Shown one piece after another: positions 8,413 through 38,032 of a DNA stretch of 64,000 bases (within the stretch, counting starts at the first letter, position 1; every line of letters begins with the position of its first letter). The stretch lies in the NCBI RefSeq assembly GCF_011421635.1, contig NZ_WTLI01000013.1, positions 31,006 through 95,005 of the forward strand, in the 5' to 3' direction. The stretch is from Paenibacillus turpanensis. Its GTDB lineage: Bacteria > Bacillota > Bacilli > Paenibacillales > YIM-B00363. A model generated the notes under the pieces. The model saw nothing but the letters and a program-made list of their open reading frames with translations, was not told the origin of the DNA and ran no database searches. A program made the position numbers and the translations under genes.

Positions 8413-8532
8413 GGTGATCTGCCTTTCTCTGCCCGTGTTCCCACTCCCGAAGAAGCCCCGGTAACGATGGCCCATGGACCATAAGTTTGTTGAATAGAAT
8501 ACATAGAAAAAGCACCTCCAGCTAAAATGGAT

Positions 8533-8548
8533 TTGAGTATTTACTCAA
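8533..8548. promoter_or_regulatory. 16-bp palindromic operator TTGAGTATTTACTCAA (copy 1, upstream of the HXXEE gene)
   Basis: Perfect 7-2-7 inverted repeat. An identical copy lies at 9239-9254 in the promoter of the adjacent TetR gene. Confidence 0.45.
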
Positions 8549-8588
8549 AATTGCGGTAAAAAAAGAGACTGGGTCGGGTATTCCAGCC

Positions 8589-9209
8589 TTAAGACAAGCG
8601 GCGTTCCTGCGAATGCGTTAATCCGTTCACCAGCAAATCCACAAGCTTACGCACATAGGTTTCGTCATCGATCGTCTGCAATTGGGCTCCGAAACGCGAT
8701 GTAACCATATAATGGACCAACAGCGATGAAGTAAAGGTTGTTAACGCAATCACGTAGGTATCGGTATCTTTAGCTTGTTCCTCTGACGATCCGCGGTTCA
8801 GCAAGGCCTCACCGGCTGCCCCCATTTTCTGCAACAGCTGCAGCACCTCCTGAGATACCATCTCATCCTGGAACATTTCCGGCGACCAAATGAGCAGGAT
8901 GTAATCCGAATTCTCTTTTAAAAAGGTAAGATACTTCAACCCGTATTGGACGAGAGCGTCCTCAAGAGACAGGTGACTCAGCTGGGCCTGCGAATCCTCT
9001 ACATGCAGCAGGAAGGTGAATTTTCTTACGATTTCGAGCAGCAGCTTGCGTTTATCTCCGAAATAGTAAAAAATGAGCCCTTCCGCCACGCCGCATTCGG
9101 CCGCGATTTCCTTCGTTGTCGTCGACCCAAAGCCCTGCCGGGAAAACAGCTTCAGCGCTGTTTGAAGGATCCGGTCTTTCTTAAGATTTTTGTCTTCTTT
9201 TCTGGACAA
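8589..9209 (-). CDS. TetR/AcrR family transcriptional regulator
   Basis: HTH DRILQTALKLFSRQGFGSTTTKEIAAECGV. The start is probably TTG at 9209 (RBS AGGA), because the longer ORF start at 9254 would place the promoter -10 and operator inside the coding sequence. Confidence 0.75.
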   Translation of the reverse strand: MSRKEDKNLKKDRILQTALKLFSRQGFGSTTTKEIAAECGVAEGLIFYYFGDKRKLLLEIVRKFTFLLHVEDSQAQLSHLSLEDALVQYGLKYLTFLKENSDYILLIWSPEMFQDEMVSQEVLQLLQKMGAAGEALLNRGSSEEQAKDTDTYVIALTTFTSSLLVHYMVTSRFGAQLQTIDDETYVRKLVDLLVNGLTHSQERRLS

Positions 9210-9363: not shown

Positions 9364-11547
9364 TTATTCTTTATCCTGTTGCTTCAGCGCAGCCTTGAGC
9401 GCATCACCGAGGCTATTTGACAGCGAGGTATCGTCACTGAACTGCTCCACCAGCTTACGCTGCTGCTTGCGTCCCATTCGGCCACCGGCTCCGCTGTCCT
9501 CCAGCTTTTCGACGAATTGGCACGGACGGCATTGGAAGTACTTCCCTGCCTTGCCGTCATGGATTTCCATTCGCTTATGACATTGCGGACAGCGCCGGTT
9601 GGACATCGGGGGCTCCGCCGAACGGCGATAACCGCATTCGCGGTCCGAGCAAACCAGCGATTTCCCGCGTTTGCCCTTCACATCCAGCATCGGCTTGCCG
9701 CATTCCGGACAACGCGAATGGGAGATATTGTGCGGCTTGTACTCCTTCGTCTCCCGCTTCACTTCAGCAACCCAGTGCACAGCCTTCTCACGGATTCCGG
9801 CCATGAAGCGCGTCGGATCACCTTTCCCCTTCGCTATGCTTTCCAGCTGCTGCTCCCACTCCGCCGTCAGCTCGGGACGCCGCAGCTCATCGACCACCAG
9901 CTCGATCAGCTGCTTGCCTTTGCCAGTCGGAAGAAGCCGATTCTGCGCCCGCTCGATCGTATCGGTTGAAAGCAGCTTCTCAATGATGTCGGCGCGGGTT
10001 GCCGGTGTGCCAAGCCCGTACTTCTCCATCTTCGCGAGCAGCGAAGCTTCCGTATACCGGGCCGGCGGCTTGGTTTTCCCCTCGCGAACGCGAGTGCCGC
10101 GCAGCTCCAGCGTCTGACCCTGCGTCAGCGCCGGAAGCAGCTGCTCCGGCTCGCGATCACCCGCGTCACGGCCGGTTTCATCCTCGTCATCCTCCAGATC
10201 GGAGGATGAACCGCCGCCCCCTCCGAATGCTCCTTCGTAGACGGCTTTCCAGCCTTCATCCTTGCGAATTTTTCCCTTCGCGTAGAAGGAGTCGCCGCCA
10301 ACAGTAATGACCACGCTCGTTTCATCGTACCGATACGGAGGATAAAACAACGCAATGAAGCGGCGTACGATCAAGTCGTACAGCTTCCTCTCATCCGCAG
10401 ATAACGCCGACAAATTGACGAATTGCTCGGTCGGAATGATCGCGTGATGATCGGTCACCTTACTGTCATCGACAATACGCTTTGTTACCGGCAGCTGGCT
10501 TTTCAACAGCTTACGTGCGATCGACGCATACGGGCCGACCGCGATGCTTTCGAGCCTGCTTTTCAGCGTCGGCACCATGTCCGACGATAAATACCGCGAA
10601 TCCGTGCGCGGGTACGTCACGAGCTTATGCTGCTCGTACAGCCGCTGCAGCACATTCGACGTCTGCTTCGCCGAGAAGCCGAGCCGCTTGTTCGCGTCGC
10701 GCTGCAGCTCCGTCAAGTCGTACGCCTGCGGATGCGGCTCCGACTTTTCCGTCGTGCGCAGCTTCTCTACCTTGGCGCCGCGACCCTTCACGCGCGCGGC
10801 CACCGCTTCCGCTGCCGCACGCTCCCAGACGCGCCCGTCGTGGCCATCCTTCTCGCGCCACTGCGCTTGAAAGCCGGCAAAATCCGCGCTGACGCTCCAG
10901 TACGGCTTCGGCTGAAACTGCGCGATTTCCTGCTCGCGCTCCATCAGCATCGCAAGCGTCGGCGTCTGCACCCGGCCGGCCGCCAGCTGCGCGTTATACT
11001 TCGTCGTCAGGGCGCGGGTGACGTTCAGCCCGATCAGCCAATCCGCCTCCGCCCGGCATACCGCCGAAGCATACAAATTGTCGTAGGCTTTGCCCGGCTT
11101 CAGCGACGCAAACCCTTCGCGAATCGCCTTGTCCGTCTGCGACGAAATCCACAGCCGCTTAAACGGCTTCCGCCATTTCACCAGCTCCATGATCCACCGC
11201 GCCACCAGCTCCCCTTCGCGCCCGGCATCGGTTGCGATAATAAGCTCGGAAAGATCGTCGCGTTTACATAACTGCGAGACCGCGCGGAATTGATGCGACG
11301 TTTCCTTCAGCACCTTCAGGTTCATGCGCGCCGGCAGAATCGGCAGCTCCTCTAAATTCCATGTCCGGTATTTGGTATCGTAATCCTCCGGCTCCGCCAA
11401 CGTCACCAAATGACCGAGCGCCCAAGTGACGACATAGTTCGGCCCTTCCATATAGCTTTTATGCTTTTGTCCGCAGCCGAGCACACGGGCAATTTCTTTG
11501 GCCACACTTGGTTTTTCGGCTAATACGAGCGATTTCAACGACAACAC
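9364..11547 (-). CDS. topB: DNA topoisomerase III
   Basis: 727 aa. TOPRIM N-terminus MLSLKSLVLAEKPSVAKEIARVLG, topoisomerase IA core, and C-terminal zinc-ribbon repeats (CPECGKPM..., CPQCHKRM...). Confidence 0.9.
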   Translation of the reverse strand: MLSLKSLVLAEKPSVAKEIARVLGCGQKHKSYMEGPNYVVTWALGHLVTLAEPEDYDTKYRTWNLEELPILPARMNLKVLKETSHQFRAVSQLCKRDDLSELIIATDAGREGELVARWIMELVKWRKPFKRLWISSQTDKAIREGFASLKPGKAYDNLYASAVCRAEADWLIGLNVTRALTTKYNAQLAAGRVQTPTLAMLMEREQEIAQFQPKPYWSVSADFAGFQAQWREKDGHDGRVWERAAAEAVAARVKGRGAKVEKLRTTEKSEPHPQAYDLTELQRDANKRLGFSAKQTSNVLQRLYEQHKLVTYPRTDSRYLSSDMVPTLKSRLESIAVGPYASIARKLLKSQLPVTKRIVDDSKVTDHHAIIPTEQFVNLSALSADERKLYDLIVRRFIALFYPPYRYDETSVVITVGGDSFYAKGKIRKDEGWKAVYEGAFGGGGGSSSDLEDDEDETGRDAGDREPEQLLPALTQGQTLELRGTRVREGKTKPPARYTEASLLAKMEKYGLGTPATRADIIEKLLSTDTIERAQNRLLPTGKGKQLIELVVDELRRPELTAEWEQQLESIAKGKGDPTRFMAGIREKAVHWVAEVKRETKEYKPHNISHSRCPECGKPMLDVKGKRGKSLVCSDRECGYRRSAEPPMSNRRCPQCHKRMEIHDGKAGKYFQCRPCQFVEKLEDSGAGGRMGRKQQRKLVEQFSDDTSLSNSLGDALKAALKQQDKE

Positions 11548-26857: not shown

Positions 26858-27745
26858 CTATTCAGGTATGTTCACAATGAACGAGACAAGAAAGACTTTT
26901 CCTTCACGCTGGAACTCCGCCCATATCTTATACTTCCCGCTCTTCGGGAAGTTCGCATCGAATTCAAGCTCCGGTCCAGTGCTGGCTTCGTCGTTCGGGT
27001 GGGTATGAATATACGAGGTAGAATCCTCACTCATGATGACAACATGCCCTTTGGACCCGATATAAAATTCAAGATCATGAATCGGCTTCTTCGTTTGCGC
27101 ATCCTCAAAACGGTACGTCAGCTGTACGGTTTCGCCTGCTTTTCGCTTATTAAATGACAATGAGATCTTCTTTCCGTCAACTACCTTCGTCAGCTCTTTA
27201 TCCGGTTGAATCGGCGGAGCCGTAGGGGCCTCTCCCTCGACATGCACCCATTGTTTATTGACGATGGCCGGCTTCCCTTTGCCCATTCCGGTCGGGACAA
27301 AGGTAGAAATCAGCTGGTAATCACCGCCCTTGGGAAAACGTGTCGTAATCATAAATTCGCCGTTTTCCTTCAGATGCGGATGGATATGCTGAAATACGGA
27401 CAAGTCCCGGCTAATGACGATCAGGTGCATTTTATCGACGTGGACGTCCTCGAACTCGGTAATCCTCTTTCCTTCCCCATTGTATGCGACGAGTGTTAGA
27501 TGCTCATCCCGTTTACTTTGCGGAGTACCGTGATCAAACGAAATTTTGAGGCTGACGTCATTTTCATCGTATTGCGTTTGCGAGCTTTTATTCGAAGCTT
27601 CACTGGCCTTGGCCTTCGCCTGCTCTGAAGCACTTTGTTCTTCCCTAGGAACCGGTGCCGCCGCAGGTTTGGAATCCGGTGCAGCCTGACAAGCGGTTAG
27701 CGTAAGCGCGATGCACATAACAACAATAGCCCACGTATTTTTCAA
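26858..27745 (-). CDS. Lipoprotein with two tandem ~110-aa beta-rich domains, each carrying an H-x-H-P motif (putative metal-binding)
   Basis: Lipobox LTACQA. Domain 1 ...FQHIHPHLKENGEF..., domain 2 ...YIHTHPNDEASTGPELEF..., both followed by GxYxLW-like strands. Confidence 0.65.
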   Translation of the reverse strand: MKNTWAIVVMCIALTLTACQAAPDSKPAAAPVPREEQSASEQAKAKASEASNKSSQTQYDENDVSLKISFDHGTPQSKRDEHLTLVAYNGEGKRITEFEDVHVDKMHLIVISRDLSVFQHIHPHLKENGEFMITTRFPKGGDYQLISTFVPTGMGKGKPAIVNKQWVHVEGEAPTAPPIQPDKELTKVVDGKKISLSFNKRKAGETVQLTYRFEDAQTKKPIHDLEFYIGSKGHVVIMSEDSTSYIHTHPNDEASTGPELEFDANFPKSGKYKIWAEFQREGKVFLVSFIVNIPE

Positions 27746-27764: not shown

Positions 27765-27877
27765 CAGTTACTCTTATTTTTTGAAAATATGCTAAGCAAA
27801 TAGGTTCTTAAAAAGGAGGAAAGTGTAAGGCCGATCGTCAGGTAAATAAACTGTAAAATGATTTGTACCCATTCCAT
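27765..27877 (-). CDS. Putative 36-aa hydrophobic peptide, translationally coupled (TGATG overlap) to the upstream gene
   Basis: MEWVQIILQFIYLTIGLTLSSFLRTYLLSIFSKNKSN. RBS GGAGGA 6 nt upstream. Confidence 0.3.
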
Positions 27878-28164
27878 CAGCTGTCCTCCTTTACCTTGCC
27901 CGACAGCTGCTGCCGCAGAAAATCGGGTACGTTTCTTTCCAAGGCCGAATTCACCCGTGCAAACAAATAGAGGAACACGAGAACAAAGATTAAAAACAAT
28001 CCAATAATCAAAATAGCAAGCACAATTCCAAGCGGCCCACCGGAAAGCGACCCCATGTAAATTGGGGCGTCACGGAAAAAGAGCATCACCAGCAGCTCAA
28101 AAAAGGCGGAAAACGCAAGTCCGATAAAGGAAACTTTAACGGTCTTGAGCCATATTGTTTTCAA
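27877..28164 (-). CDS. Small two-TM membrane protein
   Basis: RBS GAGAGGAGGGG then TTG start (LKTIWLKTVKVSFIGLAFSAFFELLVMLFF...). Confidence 0.5.
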   Translation of the reverse strand: MKTIWLKTVKVSFIGLAFSAFFELLVMLFFRDAPIYMGSLSGGPLGIVLAILIIGLFLIFVLVFLYLFARVNSALERNVPDFLRQQLSGKVKEDS

Positions 28165-28183
28165 ACGATCCCCTCCTCTCATG

Positions 28184-29461
28184 TTAGGAGGGCCCGCTAT
28201 CATGCACTGTCATTTGGCTGGAAGGTGCTTGTGGCGGTTTCTTCCGCCCTCTTCCAGCACGGCTTCTCTCTATGGAGCCAGGCCATATCGAAAGGAAAGC
28301 CATACCGACTAAGCCAACACTCAGCGTAATCAGAAATAAAAGAATGAGAGCTCCAAAAGCGTGAAAGAAAAAGACACCCCAGCCTGAAGAGATTTCAGGA
28401 TTAAAGATGTCAAAAGAGAAAACCGCTGAGCTTGCTGAGGAGTCAGAGGATGCGTTTGAAGCTTGTGAGGAGCTCTGCCCGGAACTGGTAGAATTATCTC
28501 TGCCGGAGGAGCTCGATGAACCCGATGAGCCGCTGCCGCTCATGGAGCCACCTCCGCCACTACCGCTCATGTCCATTCCACTCATGGAGCCACCTCCGCC
28601 CATGGAGCCCATACCTCCCATACCCATCATCATCATCATGCCACCCATCCCGCGCATTCCACCCATGCTCATGCCGCTCATGGAACCGCCTCCGCCGCTA
28701 CTGCCGCTCATGTCCATTCCGCGCATCGCGCCGCCGCCGCCGCTACCGCTCCTGTCCATTCCGCTCCTCGCGCCGCCTCCGCCGCTCCCGCCGCTCATGT
28801 CCCTCCCGCTCATCGCGCCGCCGCCGCCGCTACCGCTCCTGTCCATTCCGCTCCTCGCGCCGCCTCCGCCGCTCCCGCCGCTCATGTCCCTCCCGCTCAT
28901 CGCGCCGCCGCCGCCGCTACCGCTCCTGTCCATTCCGCTCCTCGCGCCGCCTCCGCCGCTCCCGCCGCTCATGTCCATTCCGCTCATGGAGCCACCGCCG
29001 CCACTACCGCTCATGTCCATTCCGCTCATGGAGCCGCCTCCGCCGCCACTGCCGCTCATGTCCATTCCGCGCATCGCGCCGCCGCCTCCGCCGCCGCTGC
29101 CGCTCATGTCCATTCCGCTCATCGCGCCGCCGCCGCCGCCGCCACTGCCGCTCATGTCCGTTCCGCTCATCGCGCCGCCGCCTCCGCCGCCGCTGCCGCT
29201 CATGTCCATTCCGCTCATCGCGCCGCCGCCTCCGCCGCTGTTAGACCCGCTGCTGTTCGAGGAGGAAGAACTGCCGCCGCCGCTTGAACTCTGCGTCGCG
29301 CCGCCCCCCGTTCCCATCCCAGGCAGTCCTACTGCTCCATTGGCAGATGACGATGCTGCCCCACCTTGTGGAAACAATAAAAAGAGCAGTAGATACAAGA
29401 ACAAAACGATAACAATGGCGCCAGCTGTATAGCCCGTTATTCGAAGCCATATGTTTTTCAA
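28184..29461 (-). CDS. Gly/Ser/Met-rich repeat membrane protein (N- and C-terminal TM helices flanking a ~330-aa low-complexity region with M-x-x-M-x-M motifs). Putative Cu(I)-binding.
   Basis: Repeats SGMDMSGSGGGGGGAM..., MGGMRGMGGMMMMMGMGGMGSMGGGG. The reverse strand carries the codon-consistent frame. Confidence 0.7.
   Translation of the reverse strand: MKNIWLRITGYTAGAIVIVLFLYLLLFLLFPQGGAASSSANGAVGLPGMGTGGGATQSSSGGGSSSSSNSSGSNSGGGGGAMSGMDMSGSGGGGGGAMSGTDMSGSGGGGGGAMSGMDMSGSGGGGGGAMRGMDMSGSGGGGGSMSGMDMSGSGGGGSMSGMDMSGGSGGGGARSGMDRSGSGGGGAMSGRDMSGGSGGGGARSGMDRSGSGGGGAMSGRDMSGGSGGGGARSGMDRSGSGGGGAMRGMDMSGSSGGGGSMSGMSMGGMRGMGGMMMMMGMGGMGSMGGGGSMSGMDMSGSGGGGSMSGSGSSGSSSSSGRDNSTSSGQSSSQASNASSDSSASSAVFSFDIFNPEISSGWGVFFFHAFGALILLFLITLSVGLVGMAFLSIWPGSIERSRAGRGRKKPPQAPSSQMTVHDSGPS
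28741..29001. repeat. Three perfect in-frame 87-bp tandem repeats, embedded in a ~700-bp array of degenerate 48-51-bp repeats (about 28540-29230)
   Basis: Unit gctaccgctcctgtccattccgctcctcgcgccgcctccgccgctcccgccgctcatgtccctcccgctcatcgcgccgccgccgcc begins at 28741, 28828 and 28915. Encodes GGSGGGGARSGMDRSGSGGGGAMSGRDMS x3. Confidence 0.85.
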
Positions 29462-29595
29462 CCGTGTTTCCCCCCTCTCTACACCCCATCATAATCCCCA
29501 CTTATGAATTACTTGTTGAGACAATCGTTTTTCCAAAAAATCCACAGCTGCTCCACGCCTTTCTGTTACATTCCAAATTACGGAGGTGAAATAAC

Positions 29596-31512
29596 ATGGT
29601 GCGCAAATGTGTGAACCGATTTCTTGATAAAATGGAAGCCATAAAAAGAAAAGTGACGCGATGGTTCGGTATTTTCCTCCTCATCACAGTCACCTTCATC
29701 GTTATTATTTTACTGCTGATTTTAACTTGGGCACTTCGTCAGTTAGCGCCTCCTTCCGCCTACTCGGCTCAGCCCCCTGCAGCTGCAGCAACTCAGATCG
29801 ACCGGCAGGTACAGTCCGGACAAAACAACGAAGGCCAGTCCGCTCCGCAGACCCGAACTCATCCGCCAACAAGCATGTCTGGCAATGAGACAGAGTTAGA
29901 CGGCTCTACAGCTGAGGCCAATAGTCAAGTAGAGAAGCCTCTCCCCGAAGATTTGCTTGGCACCGCCCAAAAGTTAAGTCAGGATTCTACGGCGGATCTC
30001 CAGGATTCGCCGCTGCTTGGAGAGCGCACGCTTGCCGAAAGAACCATAACAGACGACGGGACCATCGAGTTTCGGCTTTCCGCCGCACCGGAGACCGTTA
30101 ACATCAGTCCTACGCTCCCCTTTGAAGCATGGACCTATAACGGCATGCTGCCCGGCCCTATTATCCGGGTAACAGAAGGAGAACGCGTCCGCATTGTTTT
30201 TGAAAATCACGTTCCCGGCATCGGCACAGCCGTCCATTGGCATGGCATTCCAACTCGCAATGAGGTTGACGGCGTTCCTGAGCTTACCCAACCCAGCGTA
30301 AATACCGGCGAATCGTACGTATATGAATTTACTGCCTCTCCCTCCGGAACGTATTCCTACCATGCTCACGGGGCCAACAAAGGTGCCGAACAGCTCGATC
30401 GAGGGTTATATGGACCGTTTATTATCGATCCCGCTGAACCGACATGGCTTCCGAAAGCAAGTGTGGAATGGATTCTGAGCGTCGATGAAATGCAGATTCC
30501 CGGAGCCGGATCCGCCCCGCCGGCGAGCGACGGCAACCTGATGGATCAAGAAATGATGCAGCGGATGATGCCCCGTGCAATTCTCGGCTCCGCCGACGTG
30601 TACAATGTGTTTATAATAAACGGTAAGCGAAGCCCGCAGCAGCCGCTGGTGGCCCGTGCGGGAGAATGGATCCGCATTCGACTGCTGAATTTCGGGTACC
30701 AAAAGCACAGGTTCACGATTGACGGGCTGAAGCTGTTCGCCACGCACATGGACGGAAGAGCGCTGCCCGCAGCACAGCCGGTTGAAATCCTGGAGATTGC
30801 CCCATATGAGCGGCTTGATGCCTACATTTACGGCATGACCCCAGGAACCTACACATTAAAGGATATCGACCCGGGCCACAGCGAGTCCGGTATGAAAGCA
30901 AAGATCCGGCTTCAACCGCCGAAAGGGCCGAACCAGACCGAGGACATGGATAATTTGAAAAATACACCGTCCGCTACCGGGAGTCCTCTCCCCATTCCCC
31001 GTATCAAAACAGCGGATATCCCTGAAGGAGCGCCGCGTTACCAGCAGGTTGCCGCCGGAGTACCCGGCCCCGATAATACCACGTACGACCGTATTTATAA
31101 TATGACGCTTGGCATGACCATGGATGACGGGCAAATGGCTTGGGCGATTAACGGCCGGAGCTGGGACTCCTTTGAGGATACAGAGCCTTATCTTCTGAAA
31201 AAAGGAGAAAAAGTACGTATTAACCTTACGAACATGTCTCCGGAAAGTCATCCGATGCATCTTCACGGACACTTGTTTCATATCGTCGAAATCAACGGAC
31301 AGCCGATTGCTGAGCCTTGGCTGCTCAAGGATACGATCAATCTTCGTCCGATGGACCGTATTTCCATTGCCTTTACAGCCGACAACCCCGGAGACTGGTT
31401 CTTCCACTGCCATCAAGAGCTGCATGCCGACCACGGCTTGAAAACCTATTTCACCTACGAAAAGATAGAAACCCGGAATAAAGACGCGGGCGGGACGCCA
31501 GCAGATCGCTGA
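29596..31512 (+). CDS. Multicopper oxidase (CueO/CopA-like), N-terminally membrane-anchored, with a Met-rich segment
   Basis: RBS GGAGGTGA. Copper-site motifs HWHG, HAHG, HPMHLHGH and HCHQELHADHGL, all four present. Met-rich insert LMDQEMMQRMMP. N-terminal TM FGIFLLITVTFIVIILLLILTWAL. Confidence 0.9.
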   Translation: MVRKCVNRFLDKMEAIKRKVTRWFGIFLLITVTFIVIILLLILTWALRQLAPPSAYSAQPPAAAATQIDRQVQSGQNNEGQSAPQTRTHPPTSMSGNETELDGSTAEANSQVEKPLPEDLLGTAQKLSQDSTADLQDSPLLGERTLAERTITDDGTIEFRLSAAPETVNISPTLPFEAWTYNGMLPGPIIRVTEGERVRIVFENHVPGIGTAVHWHGIPTRNEVDGVPELTQPSVNTGESYVYEFTASPSGTYSYHAHGANKGAEQLDRGLYGPFIIDPAEPTWLPKASVEWILSVDEMQIPGAGSAPPASDGNLMDQEMMQRMMPRAILGSADVYNVFIINGKRSPQQPLVARAGEWIRIRLLNFGYQKHRFTIDGLKLFATHMDGRALPAAQPVEILEIAPYERLDAYIYGMTPGTYTLKDIDPGHSESGMKAKIRLQPPKGPNQTEDMDNLKNTPSATGSPLPIPRIKTADIPEGAPRYQQVAAGVPGPDNTTYDRIYNMTLGMTMDDGQMAWAINGRSWDSFEDTEPYLLKKGEKVRINLTNMSPESHPMHLHGHLFHIVEINGQPIAEPWLLKDTINLRPMDRISIAFTADNPGDWFFHCHQELHADHGLKTYFTYEKIETRNKDAGGTPADR

Positions 31513-31545
31513 ATGGTGTCAATAGCTGCACCGGCGGAAATACTA

Positions 31546-31579
31546 AAAAAAGGAAAGGGGCGTTTACCCTTTCCTTTTA
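31546..31579. terminator. Bidirectional terminator between the convergent MCO and encapsulin genes
   Basis: aaaggaaaggg-gcgtttac-cctttcctttt hairpin with A and T tracts. Confidence 0.6.
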
Positions 31580-32425
31580 CGCTTTGACGAGAGTGCACAC
31601 TGCCGTGGGACGCTTAATGCGGGGAACTAAGCATTCATATACGCGGTAATAGTAGTTCATATTATCATCATTTAAAAAAGCAACGTCGACGTCCTGGGCA
31701 ATGGCGAGATCGACATTTTGCCCGCCTGTCGCAACCAGTACCCCTAGCCCGTTCTTGATCTGCGAGGATTGGTAAATGCCTTCCGTAAACAAATCCCGAA
31801 TATGCTCAATCTCCAGCAAATTTGAGCCCGGCTGCACTTGATGAAGCTGTGCGTACGCATCGGGCGACAAGGCCAGTGCGAACGGTCCGTTATGGCCGTT
31901 TTTCAAGAGACGGTTGCGCGCGTGAACAATATCTTGAAACCCTCGCCCTGCCTCAGACCAATTTCCGCATGGCTGCACCTCTCTGCCGTCCACATTCATC
32001 AAGCCTGGAATGTTGAGCGGAGGATGGCCGTTAAAAATCAACTCATCCTCAAGCAGTGCCACATCCGCCGTAGCGCTTACCGCCGCCGAATAGTCGAGCG
32101 GATTGCCCGTTTCTCTGGCCTGCTCGATATCTCTCCAATACAGCACAAAATCCTTATACAAGATCGGAATGGTCAACGTTTCCTTTTCATCCGGCTTAGC
32201 AACGCTAATCTTTTCCCCGTGGAGACTAATGTTTCCTGGCTCCGGCTCCAAATATACCGGGTTGGAGACAGATTGGGCCCCAGCGCCGATCGGCCCATAA
32301 ATGTCAAGAAACTTCGCGACAACAATATGCTCCCTCGCCGTATCGACTACCGTATCGATCAAGCGATCCCATTGCTTTGCCGTAAGCGGCCCGCGGGAGG
32401 AGACTCGTTTCCGTTTATTGCTCAT
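31577..32425 (-). CDS. Family 1 encapsulin nanocompartment shell protein (HK97 fold, linocin M18-like)
   Basis: 282 aa. RBS AAGGGGGAA. Aligns along its full length with the T. maritima encapsulin (PLTAKQWDRLID..., ...ALLEDELIFNGHP..., ...LVATGGQNVDLAIAQDVDV..., C-terminal ...YYRVYECLVPRIKRPTAVCTLV). Confidence 0.85.
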   Translation of the reverse strand: MSNKRKRVSSRGPLTAKQWDRLIDTVVDTAREHIVVAKFLDIYGPIGAGAQSVSNPVYLEPEPGNISLHGEKISVAKPDEKETLTIPILYKDFVLYWRDIEQARETGNPLDYSAAVSATADVALLEDELIFNGHPPLNIPGLMNVDGREVQPCGNWSEAGRGFQDIVHARNRLLKNGHNGPFALALSPDAYAQLHQVQPGSNLLEIEHIRDLFTEGIYQSSQIKNGLGVLVATGGQNVDLAIAQDVDVAFLNDDNMNYYYRVYECLVPRIKRPTAVCTLVKA

Positions 32426-32457
32426 CGGTGTTCCCCCTTATCTAACCAAAGATGATG

Positions 32458-32682
32458 TCACGGATCATTTTCCGCCGAATCCGCGGCTTCCGCCGGTTGT
32501 TCCCTAGGTTTATTCGATTTCTTTTTTTCGGAAAAGAAGTACATAAGAACGACGAAATAGAAGGCGGAAATATCAAACGATGTCTTGTAGTTAAAAATCT
32601 GATTAATGATGGGCAGCTTATACGTGAAAAACCCGAGTAGGATGCTTAAACTCAGGAGGATAAACTTCTTAACCGTTAGCAT
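32458..32682 (-). CDS. Small membrane protein (74 aa) with polar C-terminal tail
   Basis: Two hydrophobic segments. Weak RBS. Position and strand are consistent with the operon. Confidence 0.4.
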   Translation of the reverse strand: MLTVKKFILLSLSILLGFFTYKLPIINQIFNYKTSFDISAFYFVVLMYFFSEKKKSNKPREQPAEAADSAENDP

Positions 32683-32703
32683 CGGATCCGGCCCAGCTCG
32701 CCA

Positions 32704-33066
32704 TCATCGATGTGTGGTGCGGCGTCCTCTTCTTGGGCCGCGATCGTCATCCTCGTCGTCATAATCGTCGTCCTCGAATAAACGCACATCATGCCGTTCG
32801 AAGTATTTAATCGTAATGCCGATCAACCCGACAATCAGCCCGATCACTGCCAAGATAATTAACGTGATAAATATAAAATTAAATATGGCAATAACCGCGC
32901 CCGCCCCGGAGAACGCTGACCCGCTGCTCGAGCTGCTTGAACCGCCTCCCGATACGCCGCTATAACCAACAAACCCTACGAATAGAAATTCGATGAATCC
33001 GAAAATCAAAATGGCTACGACCGAATATACGGTAAGCTTCAAAAATGGTCTCTGCTGTCGATTCAT
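32704..33066 (-). CDS. Membrane protein with Gly/Ser linker and poly-acidic C-terminal tail (EDDDYDDEDDD)
   Basis: RBS GGAGGGAG, two TM segments, acidic tail suggests cation binding. Confidence 0.55.
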   Translation of the reverse strand: MNRQQRPFLKLTVYSVVAILIFGFIEFLFVGFVGYSGVSGGGSSSSSSGSAFSGAGAVIAIFNFIFITLIILAVIGLIVGLIGITIKYFERHDVRLFEDDDYDDEDDDRGPRRGRRTTHR

Positions 33067-33145
33067 AGCTCTCCCTCCTTTGCTACCATCATAGCCGACA
33101 CTTATGGAGGGACAATGGAGAAGCCATTTTTATAACAAAATCGGG

Positions 33146-33583
33146 CTAAAATCGGTCTGGGAAATATTTCTGAATCGCGCGTACGAATAGCATTGCGATT
33201 CCGGCTAGCAGCGTAAGAAGAAAGAGAACGGTCAGACTGTAGAATAAGAAGTCGATCACCTGGACAAATAAGACGTTAGCCAATCCCAGTCCTCCGCGAA
33301 AGCCCATCATGGTGTGAGTTGTGAATGCCTGGATAAAAACCAAGTCCATAATGCCAAAAAACACAATGCCGACCAGTAGATAAATGACCCACGTTAACCA
33401 GCTACCGAGCCCCCAACCGCCGCTGTCTTTTGTATTGCGTTCTTGTCTTGGTCCCGACACACCCGATACCTTACCCCATAACGCCTGAATACCGCCAATA
33501 AACAGTGCTGCCAGCACCAAAAAGATGAGAATGATAAAGAAGATACTTAAAGCTGCGCTGATCAGGTGCCCGTTTGCGTTCAT
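33146..33583 (-). CDS. Four-TM membrane protein
   Basis: Start ATG in ATGA overlap with the upstream gene stop. MNANGHLISAALSIFFIILIF... Confidence 0.55.
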   Translation of the reverse strand: MNANGHLISAALSIFFIILIFLVLAALFIGGIQALWGKVSGVSGPRQERNTKDSGGWGLGSWLTWVIYLLVGIVFFGIMDLVFIQAFTTHTMMGFRGGLGLANVLFVQVIDFLFYSLTVLFLLTLLAGIAMLFVRAIQKYFPDRF

Positions 33584-33993
33584 TTGCGAAGACCTCCTTT
33601 TCCTCTCCCCTTCCGATCCGTTCGTGGCAGCCAAAGTATGACCCATACAATACAGGTCCCCGTAAACACTGCCGTCACAACAACAAGAAGCAGTGACAGG
33701 ACGTAGTTAATCGGGTCAAGTACCGGGTTCGCCATCCCGGACATGTGCATATGCATATCCATCCCCGTTAGCTCCTCGCACATCCGCATGCAAACCTCGA
33801 TCATAGGGGTAAGGGTGTGAAATGAATTCATCATAGTGTGACCGAACCACATCATCATCGCCATCGACAACATATCCTTCATCGACGGCTGCGCACGGTA
33901 TTCCGGCTGCACGAAGACCAACACCGCCGCCCCTGTATACAGCAGCACTATCGCCAGCATCCAATGCCCGAAGCTTGACCGCTTCGGCTTCAT
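33580..33993 (-). CDS. Met/His-rich membrane protein
   Basis: ATGA-coupled start. MKDMLSMAMMMWFGHTMMNSFHTLTPMIEVCMRMCEELTGMDMHMHMSGMANP. Confidence 0.55.
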   Translation of the reverse strand: MKPKRSSFGHWMLAIVLLYTGAAVLVFVQPEYRAQPSMKDMLSMAMMMWFGHTMMNSFHTLTPMIEVCMRMCEELTGMDMHMHMSGMANPVLDPINYVLSLLLVVVTAVFTGTCIVWVILWLPRTDRKGRGKGGLRK

Positions 33994-34304
33994 TTTGCCG
34001 CACCCAACCGTTTGCGTAAGCAACAGCCAACGATAAGGCTAAGAGGCAGAAGCCCAAACGATACGAGTGTGACACTCCAAAACAAGGTGCTCCAACCACC
34101 CGCAGGGCCGGACATGCCCATCAGCTGCCGCATCATGGAAGACATCAGCGTGCCGGATTGACAGGCTTGCATCATGCTGGTCATGTACTGCATCGCCTGT
34201 TCAGGGGGGAGTACCGGATTCACAAGCGATAACAAGACGGAGGCGGCAAGAAAGGCAAATAAAAAAGAAAGCGACCGGACGAATAGAACGAACCAATGAT
34301 TCAT
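33990..34304 (-). CDS. Met-rich membrane protein
   Basis: MQYMTSMMQACQSGTLMSSMMRQLMGMSGPAGG between TM segments. Confidence 0.55.
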   Translation of the reverse strand: MNHWFVLFVRSLSFLFAFLAASVLLSLVNPVLPPEQAMQYMTSMMQACQSGTLMSSMMRQLMGMSGPAGGWSTLFWSVTLVSFGLLPLSLIVGCCLRKRLGAAK

Positions 34305-34346
34305 TCCAACGGAATCACCTCCTCTCCTTTAGATAAAAGTAGGGGC

Positions 34347-34829
34347 TTATTGTTTTCTACCTCTGCGTTTTGGCTTAACCAAAGGCAGACGATACAAGTG
34401 GCGCTTTTGCACCATATGCCAGACGATAACCGCCATCAGTACAAATGCGAGCAGCTCATGAAGCATAAAGCTTACAACCGCCACGCGGAAGGGAACCGCC
34501 GGCATAAACCAAAGAATCACTCCTGTTATCACTAACACGAAGGTGATCGCAAAATTAAACCCTGCAAAGCCGCTGCTGCCAATCGGCAGCCATTTTCGGA
34601 CCATCGGCTTCTCTGTGATCAATTGCTTTACCTCGTAGATCGCAACCCAAGCAACCCAAATCACCCACACAAAGCCCACCAACCGGTGCACGGTATCCAT
34701 TAGCGGGAAGTGATTCCCCATCATCCAGCTAAACCTTCCTCCAATAATCGAAAACCCGCTGAGCAGCAGGAAAAAGGTTAGCACACCCCATATCCAATGC
34801 GCGATGAAATCAAACGGGATTGGTCTCAA
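34347..34829 (-). CDS. Cytochrome b561 family protein (PF01292-like di-heme membrane cytochrome)
   Basis: TTG start inside a TTGA overlap, preceded by RBS AAAGGAGGA. Conserved His in TM helices (IAHWIWGV, TVHRLVGF, MLHELLAFVLMAVIVWHM) as in E. coli CybB. Confidence 0.7.
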   Translation of the reverse strand: MRPIPFDFIAHWIWGVLTFFLLLSGFSIIGGRFSWMMGNHFPLMDTVHRLVGFVWVIWVAWVAIYEVKQLITEKPMVRKWLPIGSSGFAGFNFAITFVLVITGVILWFMPAVPFRVAVVSFMLHELLAFVLMAVIVWHMVQKRHLYRLPLVKPKRRGRKQ

Positions 34830-35800
34830 GATTCTTCCTCCTTTCCGGCTTCCTCTTTTGTGATTTCCTGCTTCTTTTGTGATCGGCTCTTTTGCAGCTG
34901 CTTCTTCGCCTTCGAAGATTTGGTAATCCCCCGATCTTTGATCACGCTTACCACATACGCAATGATACATATGAATAGCACGAGCAGCAGGATCATGAGG
35001 ATTATTTTAAAGGCAATCACCATAGTCTCGTAGAAGCTTCCTTGAGCCTTGGGGCCACCGGTGTAATCAACACTGACGTTGGACCGCATGGAGCCCATAT
35101 TCATACCGTTCATGGCCCCGCTGCCGGAGACGGAGCTCTTGTTCGTATTCATGCCCGACATATCAGATGAACCGCTGCCCATGTTCATCTGAGAGCCGAC
35201 TATATTTTGTGCGTCGCCCATATCCATAGGAGAGCCGGAAGAACTCTCCATCCCTCCGCTCGTTGTCCCTGTGCCTTCCATGGCATTCATTCCGCGCCCC
35301 TGCTTGCCCGCTTGCCCGCTTCCGGTATCCTCATTCGTGTTCCGATTGCCGTCCACACCGTTATTCTGGTTGTTTGCGTTTCCCTGCGCTTCCATTCCGC
35401 CCGGTGCATTCTCCACGCTTTGCTGCAATAAATCAATCGCCTGCCGTACAAGCCGGAGCGCTTCCAGCTGCTGCTGCTTCCAAGTCTTCTGCTCTTGGCT
35501 TGCTTCCGAGCTGCCAGAATTCTGACCGGAGGCTGCCGCATCCCCTTCCGACGCTTCTGCCCGATTTGATTGTTCATGGGCCGAATCGGGCTGCTCCTCT
35601 TTTGTCATCCCTTCCATCGAGCCTTGCTGCTGCCCGGCCTCAGTTCCCTCCTGCTTCGGCTCTGTCTGCTGCCTTGAGGCCTGAGCGCTGTCCTGCATCT
35701 CTGACATTCCTTGTTGTTCGGCAGATACAGAACCCCCCAGGAAAAGCAGCAAGCAAACGGAGCACCACAATCCTTTTAGCAGCTGCTTCCGCTTCATCAT
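34826..35800 (-). CDS. Secreted Gln/Gly/Ser/Met-rich low-complexity protein with C-terminal TM anchor
   Basis: Signal peptide MMKRKQLLKGLWCSVCLLLFLGGSVSA. ...SPMDMGDAQNIVGSQMNMGSGSSDMSGMNTNK...GAMNGMNMGSMRS. C-terminal TM plus Lys-rich tail. Confidence 0.6.
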   Translation of the reverse strand: MMKRKQLLKGLWCSVCLLLFLGGSVSAEQQGMSEMQDSAQASRQQTEPKQEGTEAGQQQGSMEGMTKEEQPDSAHEQSNRAEASEGDAAASGQNSGSSEASQEQKTWKQQQLEALRLVRQAIDLLQQSVENAPGGMEAQGNANNQNNGVDGNRNTNEDTGSGQAGKQGRGMNAMEGTGTTSGGMESSSGSPMDMGDAQNIVGSQMNMGSGSSDMSGMNTNKSSVSGSGAMNGMNMGSMRSNVSVDYTGGPKAQGSFYETMVIAFKIILMILLLVLFICIIAYVVSVIKDRGITKSSKAKKQLQKSRSQKKQEITKEEAGKEEES

Positions 35801-36732
35801 TCCCCCTCCTTCCGCTTATCTAATGGATTTGACATTGGGAGTGTAAAAGTAAATCGGCAGCCTCCTGCCTGATCACATTCGACAAAGACATGACCGCCTT
35901 GTAGCATGATCAAATGCTTTACAATACTCAGCCCAAGGCCGCTTCGGCCAGATCGTGTCCCCTGATGCAGCTGAACGCTCCTTTCAAACACACGATCCAT
36001 TTGTTCCTCCGGAATGCCCGGACCTGTGTCGCGCACCGTTGTCACAGCGTGCTGTTTTATCCTATCGACGCGAACCTCGACGGTGACCGAACCGCCATCC
36101 GGCGTATGCCGAATTGCGTTCTGAAGTAAATTGTGCAGCACCTGACGGATACGCTCCCGATCACCAAGCACATAGATCCCGTACGAGGCAGGCACCAAAT
36201 ATCGGACCGAAACTCTTTTTTTGGCTCCAGATAGCCTTTCGTCCACGGCAACATCCCTTACGATCTCGGTAAGATCAAAGGAATGGCACGAAACACGAAA
36301 CCACGGGATTTGTTCATCGGAAGCCGTTTCGATATCTTCAACCAACCGAGAAACATGCATCGCTTTTTCATAAATGATCTGCAGCTCCTGTTCCGTCATA
36401 GGAATCAAATGGTCGTTTAACGCTTCGAGACGGGTACAAAGCACATGAACGACATTGCGCAGCTCGTGGGAAACTTCCTCATAAAAATGCACCTTTTCCC
36501 GATTGCTCACCTGATGCATCAGCTCTAAACGCCTATCGTAATACCCGCTTACGGCATAAGAGGACAATAATGCGAAAACAAGACTGGCCACAAGGCATTC
36601 CGGTACCCTAACATAAGAAAAAGAAGTCCACGATCCGGCCATTGTGTTATGCTCCATCACAAAGCATAGCACCGTGGAACAGATAGACACCCCAAATATC
36701 GCAACCGTCATTTTGTACTTGGGTTTAAGCAT
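35797..36732 (-). CDS. Sensor histidine kinase (HisKA plus HATPase_c), two N-terminal TM segments
   Basis: H-box SHELRNVVHV, N/G boxes NLLQNAIRHT, DTGPGI, GLGLSIV. Confidence 0.85.
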   Translation of the reverse strand: MLKPKYKMTVAIFGVSICSTVLCFVMEHNTMAGSWTSFSYVRVPECLVASLVFALLSSYAVSGYYDRRLELMHQVSNREKVHFYEEVSHELRNVVHVLCTRLEALNDHLIPMTEQELQIIYEKAMHVSRLVEDIETASDEQIPWFRVSCHSFDLTEIVRDVAVDERLSGAKKRVSVRYLVPASYGIYVLGDRERIRQVLHNLLQNAIRHTPDGGSVTVEVRVDRIKQHAVTTVRDTGPGIPEEQMDRVFERSVQLHQGTRSGRSGLGLSIVKHLIMLQGGHVFVECDQAGGCRFTFTLPMSNPLDKRKEGE

Positions 36733-37421
36733 TGCAGCCTCTGAAATTGATACCCTTCTCGAAACACGGTAACGATATATTGAGGGTTTTTAGGATCTTC
36801 TTCGATTTTGCTTCTTAAATTTTTGATATGGCTGTCCAGGGTTCTATCCATGCCTTCGTAAAAATGACCGTGTACCCGTTCGATCAACTGCTGTCTCGAA
36901 AGAATCTGCCCCGCATGTTCCATGAAAACCCGCAGCAGCTTAAATTCAATCGGCGTAACCTCTACCTCGTGGCCTCCCACCCATACGCGTTTTTGTTTCT
37001 TTTCAATGCGGATATCGCCGACCATGATATTTTCCAGCTTAGGTTCCGGCATCCAAACCCGCCGCAGCATCGCCTTTATACGGGCAACCAGCTCCCGTGG
37101 TCGAAACGGCTTTGTGATGTAATCATCCGCTCCGGCCCCAAGACCTCTTAGAATATCCTCCTCCTGATTGCGACCTGAAAGGATAATGATCGGGGTGTTG
37201 GAACGGGATCGAATATCTTTGCATATCTCGATACCGCATGCATCCGGAAGACGAATGTCAAGCAATACCAATATTGGCTGTACTCGGTCAAATGCCGCCG
37301 TTGCCTCTGCTCCGTTATAAGCAATCTCCACTTTGTATCCTTCACCCTTTATATATGTCTTAATAGTTTGGGCAAGCAGTCGCTCGTCTTCCACTAGCAA
37401 GATCGTATTGGGCGTGCTCAT
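36708..37421 (-). CDS. OmpR-family response regulator
   Basis: ILLVEDERLL...LLDIRLPD receiver, C-terminal winged helix (TVFREGYQF). Overlaps the HK gene. Confidence 0.9.
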   Translation of the reverse strand: MSTPNTILLVEDERLLAQTIKTYIKGEGYKVEIAYNGAEATAAFDRVQPILVLLDIRLPDACGIEICKDIRSRSNTPIIILSGRNQEEDILRGLGAGADDYITKPFRPRELVARIKAMLRRVWMPEPKLENIMVGDIRIEKKQKRVWVGGHEVEVTPIEFKLLRVFMEHAGQILSRQQLIERVHGHFYEGMDRTLDSHIKNLRSKIEEDPKNPQYIVTVFREGYQFQRLQCLNPSTK

Positions 37422-37453
37422 TATAACCCTCCTCTAGGTGTATTGAACTTGTC

Positions 37454-37478
37454 GTTCCGTGGTGCAAGAATAGGAACG
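37454..37478. promoter_or_regulatory. Inverted repeat CGTTCC-N13-GGAACG upstream of the response-regulator gene
   Basis: Lies in the 236-bp divergent intergenic region between the two-component operon and the cupredoxin-like gene. Confidence 0.3.
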
Positions 37479-37657
37479 CAAGATTAAAGTGAAATCCCCC
37501 TTTCATCCCGATTCTATGACTTCCTTCCAACTCTTGAATTTATTTGTGCTATACCTATGAGACAAATATTTTGATTATTCTCCATCACTTCTCCACAACT
37601 AGCTGGTATTGTTTTCCACAGGTTCGTCAGGAATTCTTGTAAACTATTTTCGGAGGA

Positions 37658-38032
37658 GTGTGCAAAATGTTCATGAAAAAAGCCAAAACGTTGATTCTGC
37701 CTGCTATGCTGATGCTATTGTTTTCGCTGCTTGCCGGTTGCTCCAGCGAGCCTGCCAAGCCGATTGATATCGTCATTACGGCCAAAGACATGATGTTTAC
37801 GCCGGACCGCATTACCGTCGATAAGGGAAGCTCTATCAAGCTGACCTTCCGCAACCAAGAAGGTGTGGTTAACGATTTAATGATGAAAGGAACCGATGTC
37901 ATGATACAAGATGTGGGGCCGAATCAGGAGAAATCAACCACATTTACCGCTGACCGCGCGGGGACCTTTACGATCATGACCTCCGCCCCAGGCATGGAGA
38001 ATATGACAGCGGATTTTATTGTCAAAGAGTAA
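37658..38032 (+). CDS. Cupredoxin-like lipoprotein lacking canonical Cys/His copper ligands, Met-rich
   Basis: RBS GGAGGAG. Lipobox LLAGCSS. Beta-sandwich pattern ...IVITAKDMMFTPDRITVDKGSSIKLTFRNQ...TFTADRAGTFTIMTSAPGMENM.... No His, and no Cys beyond the lipobox. Confidence 0.6.
   Translation: MCKMFMKKAKTLILPAMLMLLFSLLAGCSSEPAKPIDIVITAKDMMFTPDRITVDKGSSIKLTFRNQEGVVNDLMMKGTDVMIQDVGPNQEKSTTFTADRAGTFTIMTSAPGMENMTADFIVKE

Follow-up and report, generated by a model that had tools for sequence, protein, structure and literature searches.

The encapsulins of Family 1 are understood through their cargo, which consists of peroxidases, ferritin-like ferroxidases, and hemerythrins. The subject of this report is a Family 1 shell gene from Paenibacillus turpanensis that has no such partner beside it. 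It lies in a 64-kb stretch of DNA, which is called the window here and whose positions are used for all coordinates, and it is the last of ten co-directional genes that run on the minus strand from 37421 to 31577. A first-pass annotation had the genes and coordinates of this operon right and counted nine of them. The arrangement is a new operon type of a known compartment family.

The closest described systems are those in which the shell is paired with the cargo protein IMEF, as in Q. thermotolerans (6NJ8) and B. methanolicus (9FY6). The window shell is like theirs in its length of 282 amino acids (aa), in its 52% ungapped identity, and in coming from a spore-former of the Bacillales, and it keeps the Asn of the 5-fold pore and the acidic pair at 253/254. 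In the IMEF systems, a cargo gene whose product ends in TVGSL lies upstream of the shell, a ferredoxin gene lies downstream, and the neighbours are iron genes, whereas here both partners are missing, no TVGSL is found nearby, and the neighbours are of the membrane and copper type. The shell also departs from theirs in having Arg in place of Asp9 of the Q. thermotolerans protein, Lys at the 5-fold pore in five of the nine members of its clade (described below), and other residues in place of the basic ones at 32, 37, 153, and 196.

A second comparison is with the Anammox and Scalindua systems (cEnc with NIR-HAO, and the S. rubra pair of an encapsulin and a multicopper oxidase, or MCO), in which a Family 1 shell is likewise followed by a cupredoxin-family oxidase without a consensus targeting peptide (PMC6934571, PMC8346489). 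They are “minor” or unassigned systems in the sections available of the 2021 census by Andreas and Giessen (PMC8346489). The S. rubra protein is a 324-aa, two-domain, NirK-like protein in a nitrogen-metabolism context in the Planctomycetes, whereas the MCO here is membrane-anchored, has three domains and a Met-rich insert, and is accompanied by about nine more conserved membrane genes in the Bacillales. The same sections of the census report 90 unassigned Family 1 systems with no detail, which resemble the present one in having none of the six defined cargo types and an unusual neighbourhood; none of the clade's genera appears in the supplementary tables available, where the sole MCO neighbour is that of Scalindua rubra (PMC8346489). 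Unlike those entries, the neighbourhood here is shown to be conserved and specific.

The copper-resistance systems of the Cop/Pco/CueO kind (P. syringae CopABCD, E. coli PcoA and CueO) share with this cluster an MCO with a Met segment, exposed Met/Asp/(His) repeats, and, in some copies, two-component control, a likeness that draws partly on what is generally known of those families. Unlike in Cop and Pco, the accessory proteins here have no homology to CopB, CopC, or CopD, the setting is Gram-positive and membrane-anchored, a cytochrome b and an encapsulin are included, and the axial position at the type 1 (T1) copper site is Leu. Csp3, which supplies CotA in B. subtilis (PMC9484137), is a functional analogy only, as a cytoplasmic store linked to an MCO in a spore-former. 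It is a Cys-lined four-helix bundle, whereas the candidate store here is an HK97-fold shell, unrelated in sequence and fold, whose copper binding is hypothetical. No encapsulin in a copper or membrane-protein cluster of the Bacillales was found in the literature searched, where the only returns were the Scalindua paper and papers on lignin that are unrelated. A 2025 review is also silent on such an encapsulin cluster, and the earlier impression of an arrangement unlike any known for Family 1 has held up.

Judged by its sequence, the shell is a member of Family 1 (the classical encapsulins) at full length, as first proposed. It scores 260.2 bits against NF041155 (cut-off 100) and 215 bits against PF04454 (cut-off 24.3; 1e-63), and it aligns at about 52% identity, with no internal gaps, to the two solved shells, of which 6NJ8 is a T=4 iron-storage compartment. 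An AlphaFold model built from a 33-sequence alignment is poor (predicted local distance difference test, pLDDT, of 56); it gives the order N-terminal helix (16-33), E-loop strands, spine helix, and A-domain, and its top 50 fold matches in the PDB are all Family 1 shells. The alignment and the fold matches indicate the HK97-type fold expected of the protein, with an N-terminal helix instead of an extended N-arm. From similarity to 6NJ8 alone, the shell would be expected to assemble in the T=4 state. A prophage or defence origin was also considered and set aside, with no PADLOC matches and an equivalog-level match of the shell to Family 1.

The closest relatives of the shell form a clade with it. 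Eight proteins are 65-72% identical to it, and all other matches are at 57% or less. Three of the eight are metagenomic, and the others come from Halobacillus naozhouensis, Tuberibacillus sp., Aquibacillus kalidii, and two Radiobacillus species. Gene context was compared for the window and for loci L027 (A. kalidii), L031 (R. deserti), L028/L029/L030 (metagenomic, Paenibacillus-like), and, with partial context, L032 (H. naozhouensis), leaving aside Tuberibacillus, R. kanasensis, and two metagenomic members of the clade.

The first-pass annotation found neither a known cargo gene nor a targeting peptide near the shell, and the scans agree. Among 50 proteins at about 17-51 kb, Pfam and NCBIfam show no member of the DyP, ferritin-like, IMEF, rubrerythrin, hemerythrin, or bacterioferritin families. 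A regular expression for terminal peptides of the GSL/TVGSL type finds none in the real open reading frames (ORFs) of the 64-kb window or of L027, L028, L031, and L032. As a positive control, the same expression was applied to sister loci outside the clade, and in nine of nine it recovers [LF]TVGSL[KI] within 7 residues of the C-terminus of the gene upstream of the shell. The same nine loci also carry the peptide near the N-terminus of a second ORF, presumably the ferredoxin, at most about 2 kb downstream. The clade has lost the IMEF and ferredoxin partners that its nearest relatives keep. Inspection by eye of the cluster proteins' cytoplasmic tails for a relaxed consensus, L/F-x-V/I-x-x-L/I (PMC11202242), gives no conserved match.

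The shell protein has changed along with its neighbourhood. The nine members of the clade, including the window protein, were compared with 111 sister shells, and the following positions stand apart:

Position 11: D or E in 107 of 111 sisters; R in 6 of 7 clade members.
Position 32: R or K in 110 of 111 sisters; D or E in 9 of 9 clade members.
Position 36: G in 111 of 111 sisters; A or V in the clade.
Position 37: R in 111 of 111 sisters; S, A, D, or G in 9 of 9 clade members.
Position 153: R or K in 103 of 111 sisters; C in 9 of 9 clade members.
Position 196: R in 111 of 111 sisters; Q in 9 of 9 clade members.
Position 202: N or H in sisters; K in 5 of 9 clade members.
Position 227: commonly A, T, S, or R in sisters, with Cys not among the commonest; C in 7 of 9 clade members.

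In the 6NJ8 structure, the N-terminal helix, together with the P-domain, makes up the targeting-peptide site, “locked” by a pair of conserved basic residues that are not named (PMC6668986). Positions 32-37 belong to the N-terminal helix. The pores of the IMEF shells are lined by acidic or Asn residues, which are D9, D71, E251, E252, and N200 in the Q. thermotolerans protein (PMC6668986). Positions 11 and 202 correspond to Asp9 of the 3-fold pore and Asn200 of the 5-fold pore of 6NJ8, and position 196 is in the 5-fold pore loop. The window shell keeps N202 and D253/D254; its equivalent of D9 is Arg and that of D71 is Ile. The cargo site therefore appears remodelled and more acidic, and the pore charge altered; the replacements at 32, 37, 153, 196, 11, and 202 argue for a changed partner and a changed ion selectivity. 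Two extensions were also seen. Six of the nine clade shells have a Lys/Arg-rich N-terminal extension of 10-16 residues (e.g., MSNKRKRVSSRG; residues 1-12 of the window protein, 32390-32425), which the sister shell compared does not have, and three have a C-terminal extension, ..NGNNQGEGNESSAGGKF.

The genes that surround the shell extend beyond the operon first annotated, and the full module occupies 27877-38032 of the window. Its genes are the following, in the direction of the operon:

37658..38032, plus strand: lipoprotein with a cupredoxin-like fold (PF13473, 6.7e-11; lipobox), divergent from the operon.
36708..37421, minus strand: response regulator (RR) of the OmpR family (PF00072 and PF00486).
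35797..36732, minus strand: histidine kinase (HK; HisKA and HATPase_c).
34826..35800, minus strand: secreted Met/Gln/Ser-rich protein of 324 aa (module A), with a signal peptide and a C-terminal transmembrane (TM) anchor.
34347..34829, minus strand: cytochrome b of the prokaryotic b561 type, 160 aa, four TM (PF01292), with a TTG start and a Shine-Dalgarno sequence.
33990..34304, minus strand: 104-aa protein with two TM spans, a Met-rich loop outside the cytoplasm, and C-x-S-x2-LMSSM as its conserved motif.
33580..33993, minus strand: 137-aa two-TM protein with a Met/His/Cys-rich loop, 13% Met.
33146..33583, minus strand: multi-TM protein; the ATG at 33583 is backed by a Shine-Dalgarno sequence.
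32704..33066, minus strand: 120-aa small membrane protein with an acidic tail (alignment A1).
32458..32682, minus strand: 74-aa two-TM protein with an acidic tail (alignment A2).
31577..32425, minus strand: Family 1 encapsulin shell, 282 aa, T=4-related (NF041155, PF04454).
31548..31578, minus strand: likely terminator, a 12-bp hairpin with a T-run, between the stop codons of the encapsulin and MCO genes.
29596..31512, plus strand: three-domain MCO (Pfam; model), convergent with the encapsulin gene.
28184..29461, minus strand: 425-aa protein of the form TM, Gly-Ser-Met-rich repeats, TM, with a 15-aa unit repeated about 13 times; 11% Met.
27877..28203, minus strand: 108-aa two-TM protein, the last module of the cluster.

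The same modules occur in the same order in the window, in L028/L029/L030, in L027, in L031, and in part in L032. The order is the secreted, anchored Met-rich protein; the cytochrome b; the two-TM protein with the Met loop; the Met/His/Cys-loop protein; an 86-aa two-TM protein (fused in the window); the 120-aa acidic-tail protein; the 74-aa protein; a soluble peptide of 40-49 aa (absent in the window); the encapsulin; the MCO; the TM/Gly-Ser-Met-rich/TM protein; and a two-TM protein of 86-108 aa. Orthologues of the 324-aa protein are found in L027, L028, L031, and L032; in L027 and L031, equivalents of the 425-aa protein (332-356 aa) sit after the MCO, together with orthologues of the 108-aa protein (86-94 aa). 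The two-component system and the divergent cupredoxin lipoprotein are present only in the window and L028/L029, the Paenibacillus-type loci. The lipoprotein has no His and 9.7% Met, and its orthologue in L028 has the same position. The MCO gene converges on the shell gene in the window, as first noted, and it is the only inverted gene there and in L028. In A. kalidii and R. deserti, it lies directly downstream of the shell on the same strand, after a gap of 33-72 nucleotides. The MCO is a member of the module and not merely a convergent neighbour.

Conservation of the gene set, raised earlier as a point to check by comparative genomics, thus reaches at least three bacterial families. In a set of 115 encapsulin loci (1.37 Mb), only the shell clade has the cytochrome b and small-protein modules. 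Two metagenome scans yielded no further members of the module: the 74-aa family had no relative, and the shell-clade alignment found nothing above 57% identity. A scan of genome contigs with single-sequence patterns returned only sister shells at 54% identity or less, which were reused as the control set, and a plasmid search returned only distant shells at 25% or less, with no sign of a plasmid-borne cluster. Synonymous sites are saturated between copies (proportion of synonymous differences, pS, about 0.75). Of the five genes for which the corresponding nonsynonymous value (pN) was measured, the shell is at or near the bottom in every comparison, with 0.14-0.24; the two small proteins have 0.15-0.25, and the MCO has 0.26-0.34. 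The reading frame of the shell is intact in every copy, with 127 positions invariant across the nine members. The shell clade is under strong purifying selection, and the neighbourhood is a conserved module, not a chance assembly. That it is spread over the Paenibacillaceae, the Bacillaceae, and Tuberibacillus, which belongs to neither family, suggests that the unit was transferred horizontally as a whole. Downstream of the cluster in A. kalidii and R. deserti (L027:14368-20843, L031:14838-20351) is a further syntenic gene set, missing beside the window copy, that comprises two pyridine-nucleotide disulfide oxidoreductases, a GT2 glycosyltransferase, DUF2064, an APH/choline-kinase-like protein, and a solute-binding protein.

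The genes of the operon are closely packed. The overlaps reported earlier are all present (TTGA at 34826-34829; ATGA at 33990-33993 and 33580-33583; 25 nucleotides between RR and HK), and another ATGA was found at 35797-35800. The remaining junctions are gaps of 21-79 nucleotides, so that translational coupling, first assumed for the whole operon, is limited to four or five of its nine junctions. The encapsulin gene has a Shine-Dalgarno sequence and a likely terminator of its own. With its start moved to 33583, the multi-TM protein, to which four TM spans were ascribed at first, shows three predicted hydrophobic spans. It is a fusion of the C-terminal half of a 214-aa orthologue and the two-TM, 86-aa gene, which are separate in the other genomes. 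The orthologues of the 137-aa Met/His-rich protein measure 214-220 aa in other genomes, and its loop carries QPSM..SMAMMM, a C-x3-C pair in most orthologues, and ..HGNP/ANP.LD. The cytochrome b was correctly recognised; its PF01292 match is borderline (30.4 bits against a cut-off of 30.1), and its orthologues, 46-51% identical, have unmarked PF01292 matches. Four His are conserved, by inspection, across five orthologues. The match, the four TM spans, and the conserved His are those expected of the PF01292 family, and haem ligation is predicted.

The MCO matches PF07732 and PF07731 and has the ligand motifs HWH, HAH, HPMHLH, and HCHQELH, with invariant His and Cys columns (alignment A4). In its model (pLDDT 80.5), an N-terminal helix containing a hydrophobic span of 25 residues is followed by about 90 residues of disordered linker and by three cupredoxin domains. 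Together these features identify it as a three-domain multicopper oxidase with the four copper-ligand motifs. A Met-rich insert, MDQEMMQRMMP, is conserved in four orthologues and forms a helix (318-324) in the model. The MCO and the shell are each 100% identical to an NCBI protein of P. turpanensis. The MCO orthologues are 55-59% identical by tblastn and 48-60% identical by protein search, and MCOs above 45% identity occur only in genomes with the cluster. Of the two nearest MCOs outside it (43% and 33%), one has SCO1, DUF305, CtaG, and a P-type ATPase as neighbours, and the other has a CopY-like repressor, DsbD, a two-component system, and a further MCO; no encapsulin is found beside either. 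At two metagenomic IMEF-type loci (L036:11560-11916, L038:20457-20813), a match to the MCO N-terminal domain (45% over 122 aa) lies about 10 kb downstream of the shell, at the end of the loci, which is probably coincidental.

By hydropathy and the positive-inside rule, the loops and repeats rich in Met are assigned to the outer side of the membrane and the K/R-rich ends to the inner side. The loops contain up to 13% Met, and the 425-aa protein has about 13 copies of a 15-aa unit of the type GMDMSGSGGGG, which the Met/Asp/His repeats of CopA and PcoA resemble. Met-rich M-x-M repeats are a signature of Cu(I) and Ag(I), as in CopA, PcoA, CueO, and Ctr1, and not of Fe. The Met-rich ectodomains, the MCO insert, and the copper contexts of the MCO relatives point to a predicted role in Cu(I) handling; together with the Met-rich cupredoxin, they fit the copper and redox interpretation first given to the operon. 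At the DNA level, the repeats of the 425-aa protein are a 45-nucleotide tandem repeat of about 12.8 copies with a G+C fraction of about 0.70 (28670-29240), which encodes the 15-aa unit of Gly, Ser, Met, and Asp. Its opposite strand gives long spurious ORFs that are Pro-rich or Arg/Ser-rich (28407-29432, 28516-29244). Just outside the cluster (26858-27745, minus strand) is a 295-aa lipoprotein (lipobox LTAC) with HIHPH and HTHP motifs and a weak YtkA-like match (E 0.002, below cut-off). It may be another metal-binding envelope protein; no equivalent was found among the called genes at the other cluster loci.

Two small proteins are encoded directly upstream of the shell. The cytoplasmic tail of the 120-aa protein has the pattern ERHD-x2-LF-(E/D)D, a poly-acidic run, and a basic C-terminus, R-R/G-x-S/T-H-R/K, and the mean column identity of the family alignment is 79%. 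Eight relatives were found among 5.8 billion clusters: three are cluster copies, two share the lengths of contigs with shell matches, two are stand-alone, and one is on a short contig. The stand-alone copies, 54% identical to the window protein, lie outside any cluster (L032:10001-10351, L033:8199-8549), which shows that the family is not strictly confined to the module. That of H. naozhouensis (P0127) is about 7 kb upstream of the real cluster and has the UniRef name DUF4064; Pfam gives no match for the window protein. The 74-aa protein has an invariant block, SILLGFFTYKLPIINQIFNYKTSFD, of about 25 unbroken residues, and the invariant residues total 36. Its family has a single representative among 1.84 billion protein clusters. 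The DNA of the gene varies at third-codon positions while the peptide is unchanged, and a conserved RNA in place of the gene was rejected on this ground. Charge complementarity between the poly-acidic tails of these adjoining small proteins and the basic extensions of the shells is possible.

In three other copies, the gene that abuts the encapsulin gene on its upstream side encodes a conserved soluble peptide of 40-49 aa (L027:9849-9998, L031:10590-10712, L028 at about 8480-8620). It has the pattern ..SG[IL][IV]YEENWNV[FI]LK.LE.K.L.ERRK and occupies the classical cargo position. It has no targeting peptide of the GSL type, and its gene is missing in the window, where only 32 nucleotides separate 32458 from 32425.

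Regulation of the window copy can be approached through its two-component system and two repeats in the DNA:

37578..37595, minus strand: direct repeat TGGAGAA-N4-TGGAGAA with an 11-bp period, between the RR and cupredoxin genes; resembles an OmpR/PhoB-type site.
33105..33122, plus strand: second copy of the repeat with 2 mismatches, in the 79-nucleotide gap ahead of the 120-aa gene, where it shares sequence with promoter-like hexamers (33088-33115, minus strand).

The perfect repeat is unique in the window, and a perfect copy is found in L028 at 3430-3447. The copy at the RR gene is inside a near-identical block of about 25-30 nucleotides that the window and L028 have in common, their spacers being otherwise divergent. 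Copies with 3 mismatches lie in the equivalent gap before the 120-aa gene of L028 (7842-7870) and upstream of its MCO gene (11365-11382). Over the whole window, 15 repeat-like matches were counted against 7.4 ± 2.9 expected, and because this excess over chance is only modest, the weaker copies are leads only. The pattern suggests one regulon, with a separate promoter for the unit of the 120-aa, 74-aa, and encapsulin genes, and a putative internal promoter upstream of 33066 is possible. The HK has two TM spans with only about nine residues between them by hydropathy, and thus no periplasmic metal-sensing domain, which makes it a kinase of the intramembrane-sensing type. No NCBIfam equivalog reaches its cut-off with the RR, and the two-component system is below the cut-offs of the CopRS/CusRS models TIGR01386 and TIGR01387 (81 against 292.55 bits and 145 against 279.2 bits).

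The explanation we favour, tentatively and at somewhat less than even likelihood, is that the cluster is a rare, horizontally spread module of about 12 genes in which an extracytoplasmic apparatus for Cu(I) is joined to an encapsulin shell put to a new use. On the outer side of the membrane, several anchored proteins would bind Cu(I) or Ag(I) through their Met-rich loops or repeats, and the membrane-anchored MCO, with its Met-rich insert, would oxidise Cu(I) to Cu(II). The four-TM, putatively di-haem cytochrome b may link this copper chemistry with either the quinone pool or the cytoplasmic face. In P. turpanensis, the module would be under the control of the intramembrane-sensing HK and the OmpR-type RR, with TGGAGAA-N4-TGGAGAA as the likely site. 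The shell descends from the T=4 iron-mineralising (IMEF) shells of the Firmicutes, with loss of the adjacent IMEF and ferredoxin genes. It would serve as the cytoplasmic arm and sole structural part of the module in the cytoplasm, a compartment produced alongside the envelope proteins that sequesters metal or metal-damaged species during copper stress. Its partner would be non-canonical rather than a TVGSL-type cargo, whether by loading or by docking, and the best candidates are the 120-aa and 74-aa proteins, whose charged tails are predicted to face the cytoplasm. Of these parts, the role of the shell itself is proposed from its sequence and position.

A more specific form of this explanation is that the shell, having lost the basic residues at its canonical cargo site, has been re-targeted to a basic or acidic tail that a membrane protein of the cluster exposes in the cytoplasm, so that the compartment is formed at the membrane or fed from it and sequesters copper (or silver). 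We regard this as fairly improbable. The tail of the 120-aa protein (ERHD-x2-LF-DD, the poly-acidic run, and RRSTHR at the C-terminus) would be the best candidate, followed by the 74-aa protein and the 40-aa peptide.

Of course, several observations weigh against a copper module with a repurposed shell. The shell has no obvious metal-binding cargo, and the tail of a protein embedded in the membrane could be enclosed in a closed shell only through processing or threading. The T1 axial residue of the MCO is Leu and not the Met of CueO, and the closest solved folds include laccases, Fet3p, and metallo-oxidases alike, those of a generic three-domain MCO, which does not fix its substrate. Only composition and association suggest the copper specificity. 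The Bacillaceae copies have no two-component system, and co-regulation is indicated by position in two loci only. The EncA shell of M. xanthus contacts the LTVGSLR peptide through D39, D214, and Y217 (PMC11126975), and these residues are retained in the window shell as D41, E215, and Y218 (the EncA sequence was checked against 4PT2). Since they are retained, a canonical peptide might still bind, and the cargo could be encoded elsewhere.

This last point belongs to the main rival, in which the shell is an ordinary Family 1 compartment, the gene for its canonical cargo (IMEF, Flp, DyP, or bacterioferritin, with a C-terminal targeting peptide) lies at another place in the genome, and the location of the shell reflects only co-regulation or chance; storage of iron freed from Fe-S clusters under copper stress is a possible variant. 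There is precedent in Family 1 in the proposed BfrB cargo of M. tuberculosis, which is outside the operon (PMC8346489), and the cargo search covered 64 kb of this genome. The ungapped identity of 52% to an iron-storing T=4 shell also agrees with this rival. It fits poorly, however, with five loci in three families where the shell has kept its place in the cluster even though synonymous divergence is saturated, and with the nine of nine sampled sister loci that keep cargo and ferredoxin adjacent. The replacement across the clade of R37, R196, and the basic residues at 32 and 153, with D/E11 changed to R and N202 to K in five of nine, also speaks for a changed partner and a changed ion selectivity. 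We consider it doubtful, while giving it more weight than the other alternatives.

In a second rival, the cluster is an iron system: the MCO would be an extracellular ferroxidase like Fet3p, the membrane proteins would pass iron inward, and the shell would store it. The top fold matches of the MCO model include Fet3p, and eukaryotic b561-type cytochromes can be ferric reductases. The sister shells are iron stores (PMC6668986). With no ferroxidase cargo at the locus, Met-rich chemistry of the Cu(I)/Ag(I) type and not of the Fe type, copper contexts for the nearest MCO relatives, and partial loss of the uniformly acidic pores described for IMEF shells (PMC6668986), an iron system is distinctly unlikely.

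The MCO itself has also been weighed as the cargo, as proposed for the Scalindua rubra encapsulin-MCO pair (PMC6934571), with a terminal element and the linker as a tether. Its co-directional position 33-72 nucleotides after the shell in A. kalidii and R. deserti and the resemblance of its disordered linker of about 90 residues to cargo linkers speak for it. The uninterrupted hydrophobic span of 25 residues, which follows six K/R residues, is a signal-anchor, however, and would place the enzyme outside the cell, where all of the other Met-rich partners are also predicted to be. In addition, neither end of the MCO has a targeting peptide, encapsulation was never demonstrated in S. rubra, and the S. 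rubra MCO is a two-domain NirK-like protein. The chance that the MCO is the cargo is slim, and it was rejected on topology. Finally, the shell gene could be a decaying, functionless IMEF remnant inserted by chance into a copper island, as the absence of the cargo genes, and here of the 40-aa peptide ORF that some copies carry, could suggest. This is hardly credible for a gene with its own Shine-Dalgarno sequence and terminator, an intact frame in every copy, and 127 invariant positions across nine members. With pN at 0.14-0.24 and pS saturated, the shell ranks at about the top in conservation among the five cluster proteins measured, and the selection analysis largely excludes gene decay.

What the module means for encapsulin biology depends on the partner of the shell. 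The clade combines strong purifying selection with the absence of any peroxidase, ferritin-like, or hemerythrin cargo nearby and with altered cargo-site and pore residues, and it travels as a unit with an MCO, a cytochrome b, and some eight orphan membrane proteins. Should the gene for a canonical cargo lie elsewhere, this would be an iron-storage compartment in a cluster apparently under copper-stress control. The unit of three genes (120-aa, 74-aa, and shell), about 1.5 kb within a cluster of about 10 kb, offers a small experimental system. If the shell works with its cluster partners, encapsulin biology would extend to copper and silver stress, with a link to the cell envelope and a new mode of loading or docking, and if the re-targeting is true, this would be the first membrane-coupled encapsulin and the first to store copper rather than iron or sulfur.

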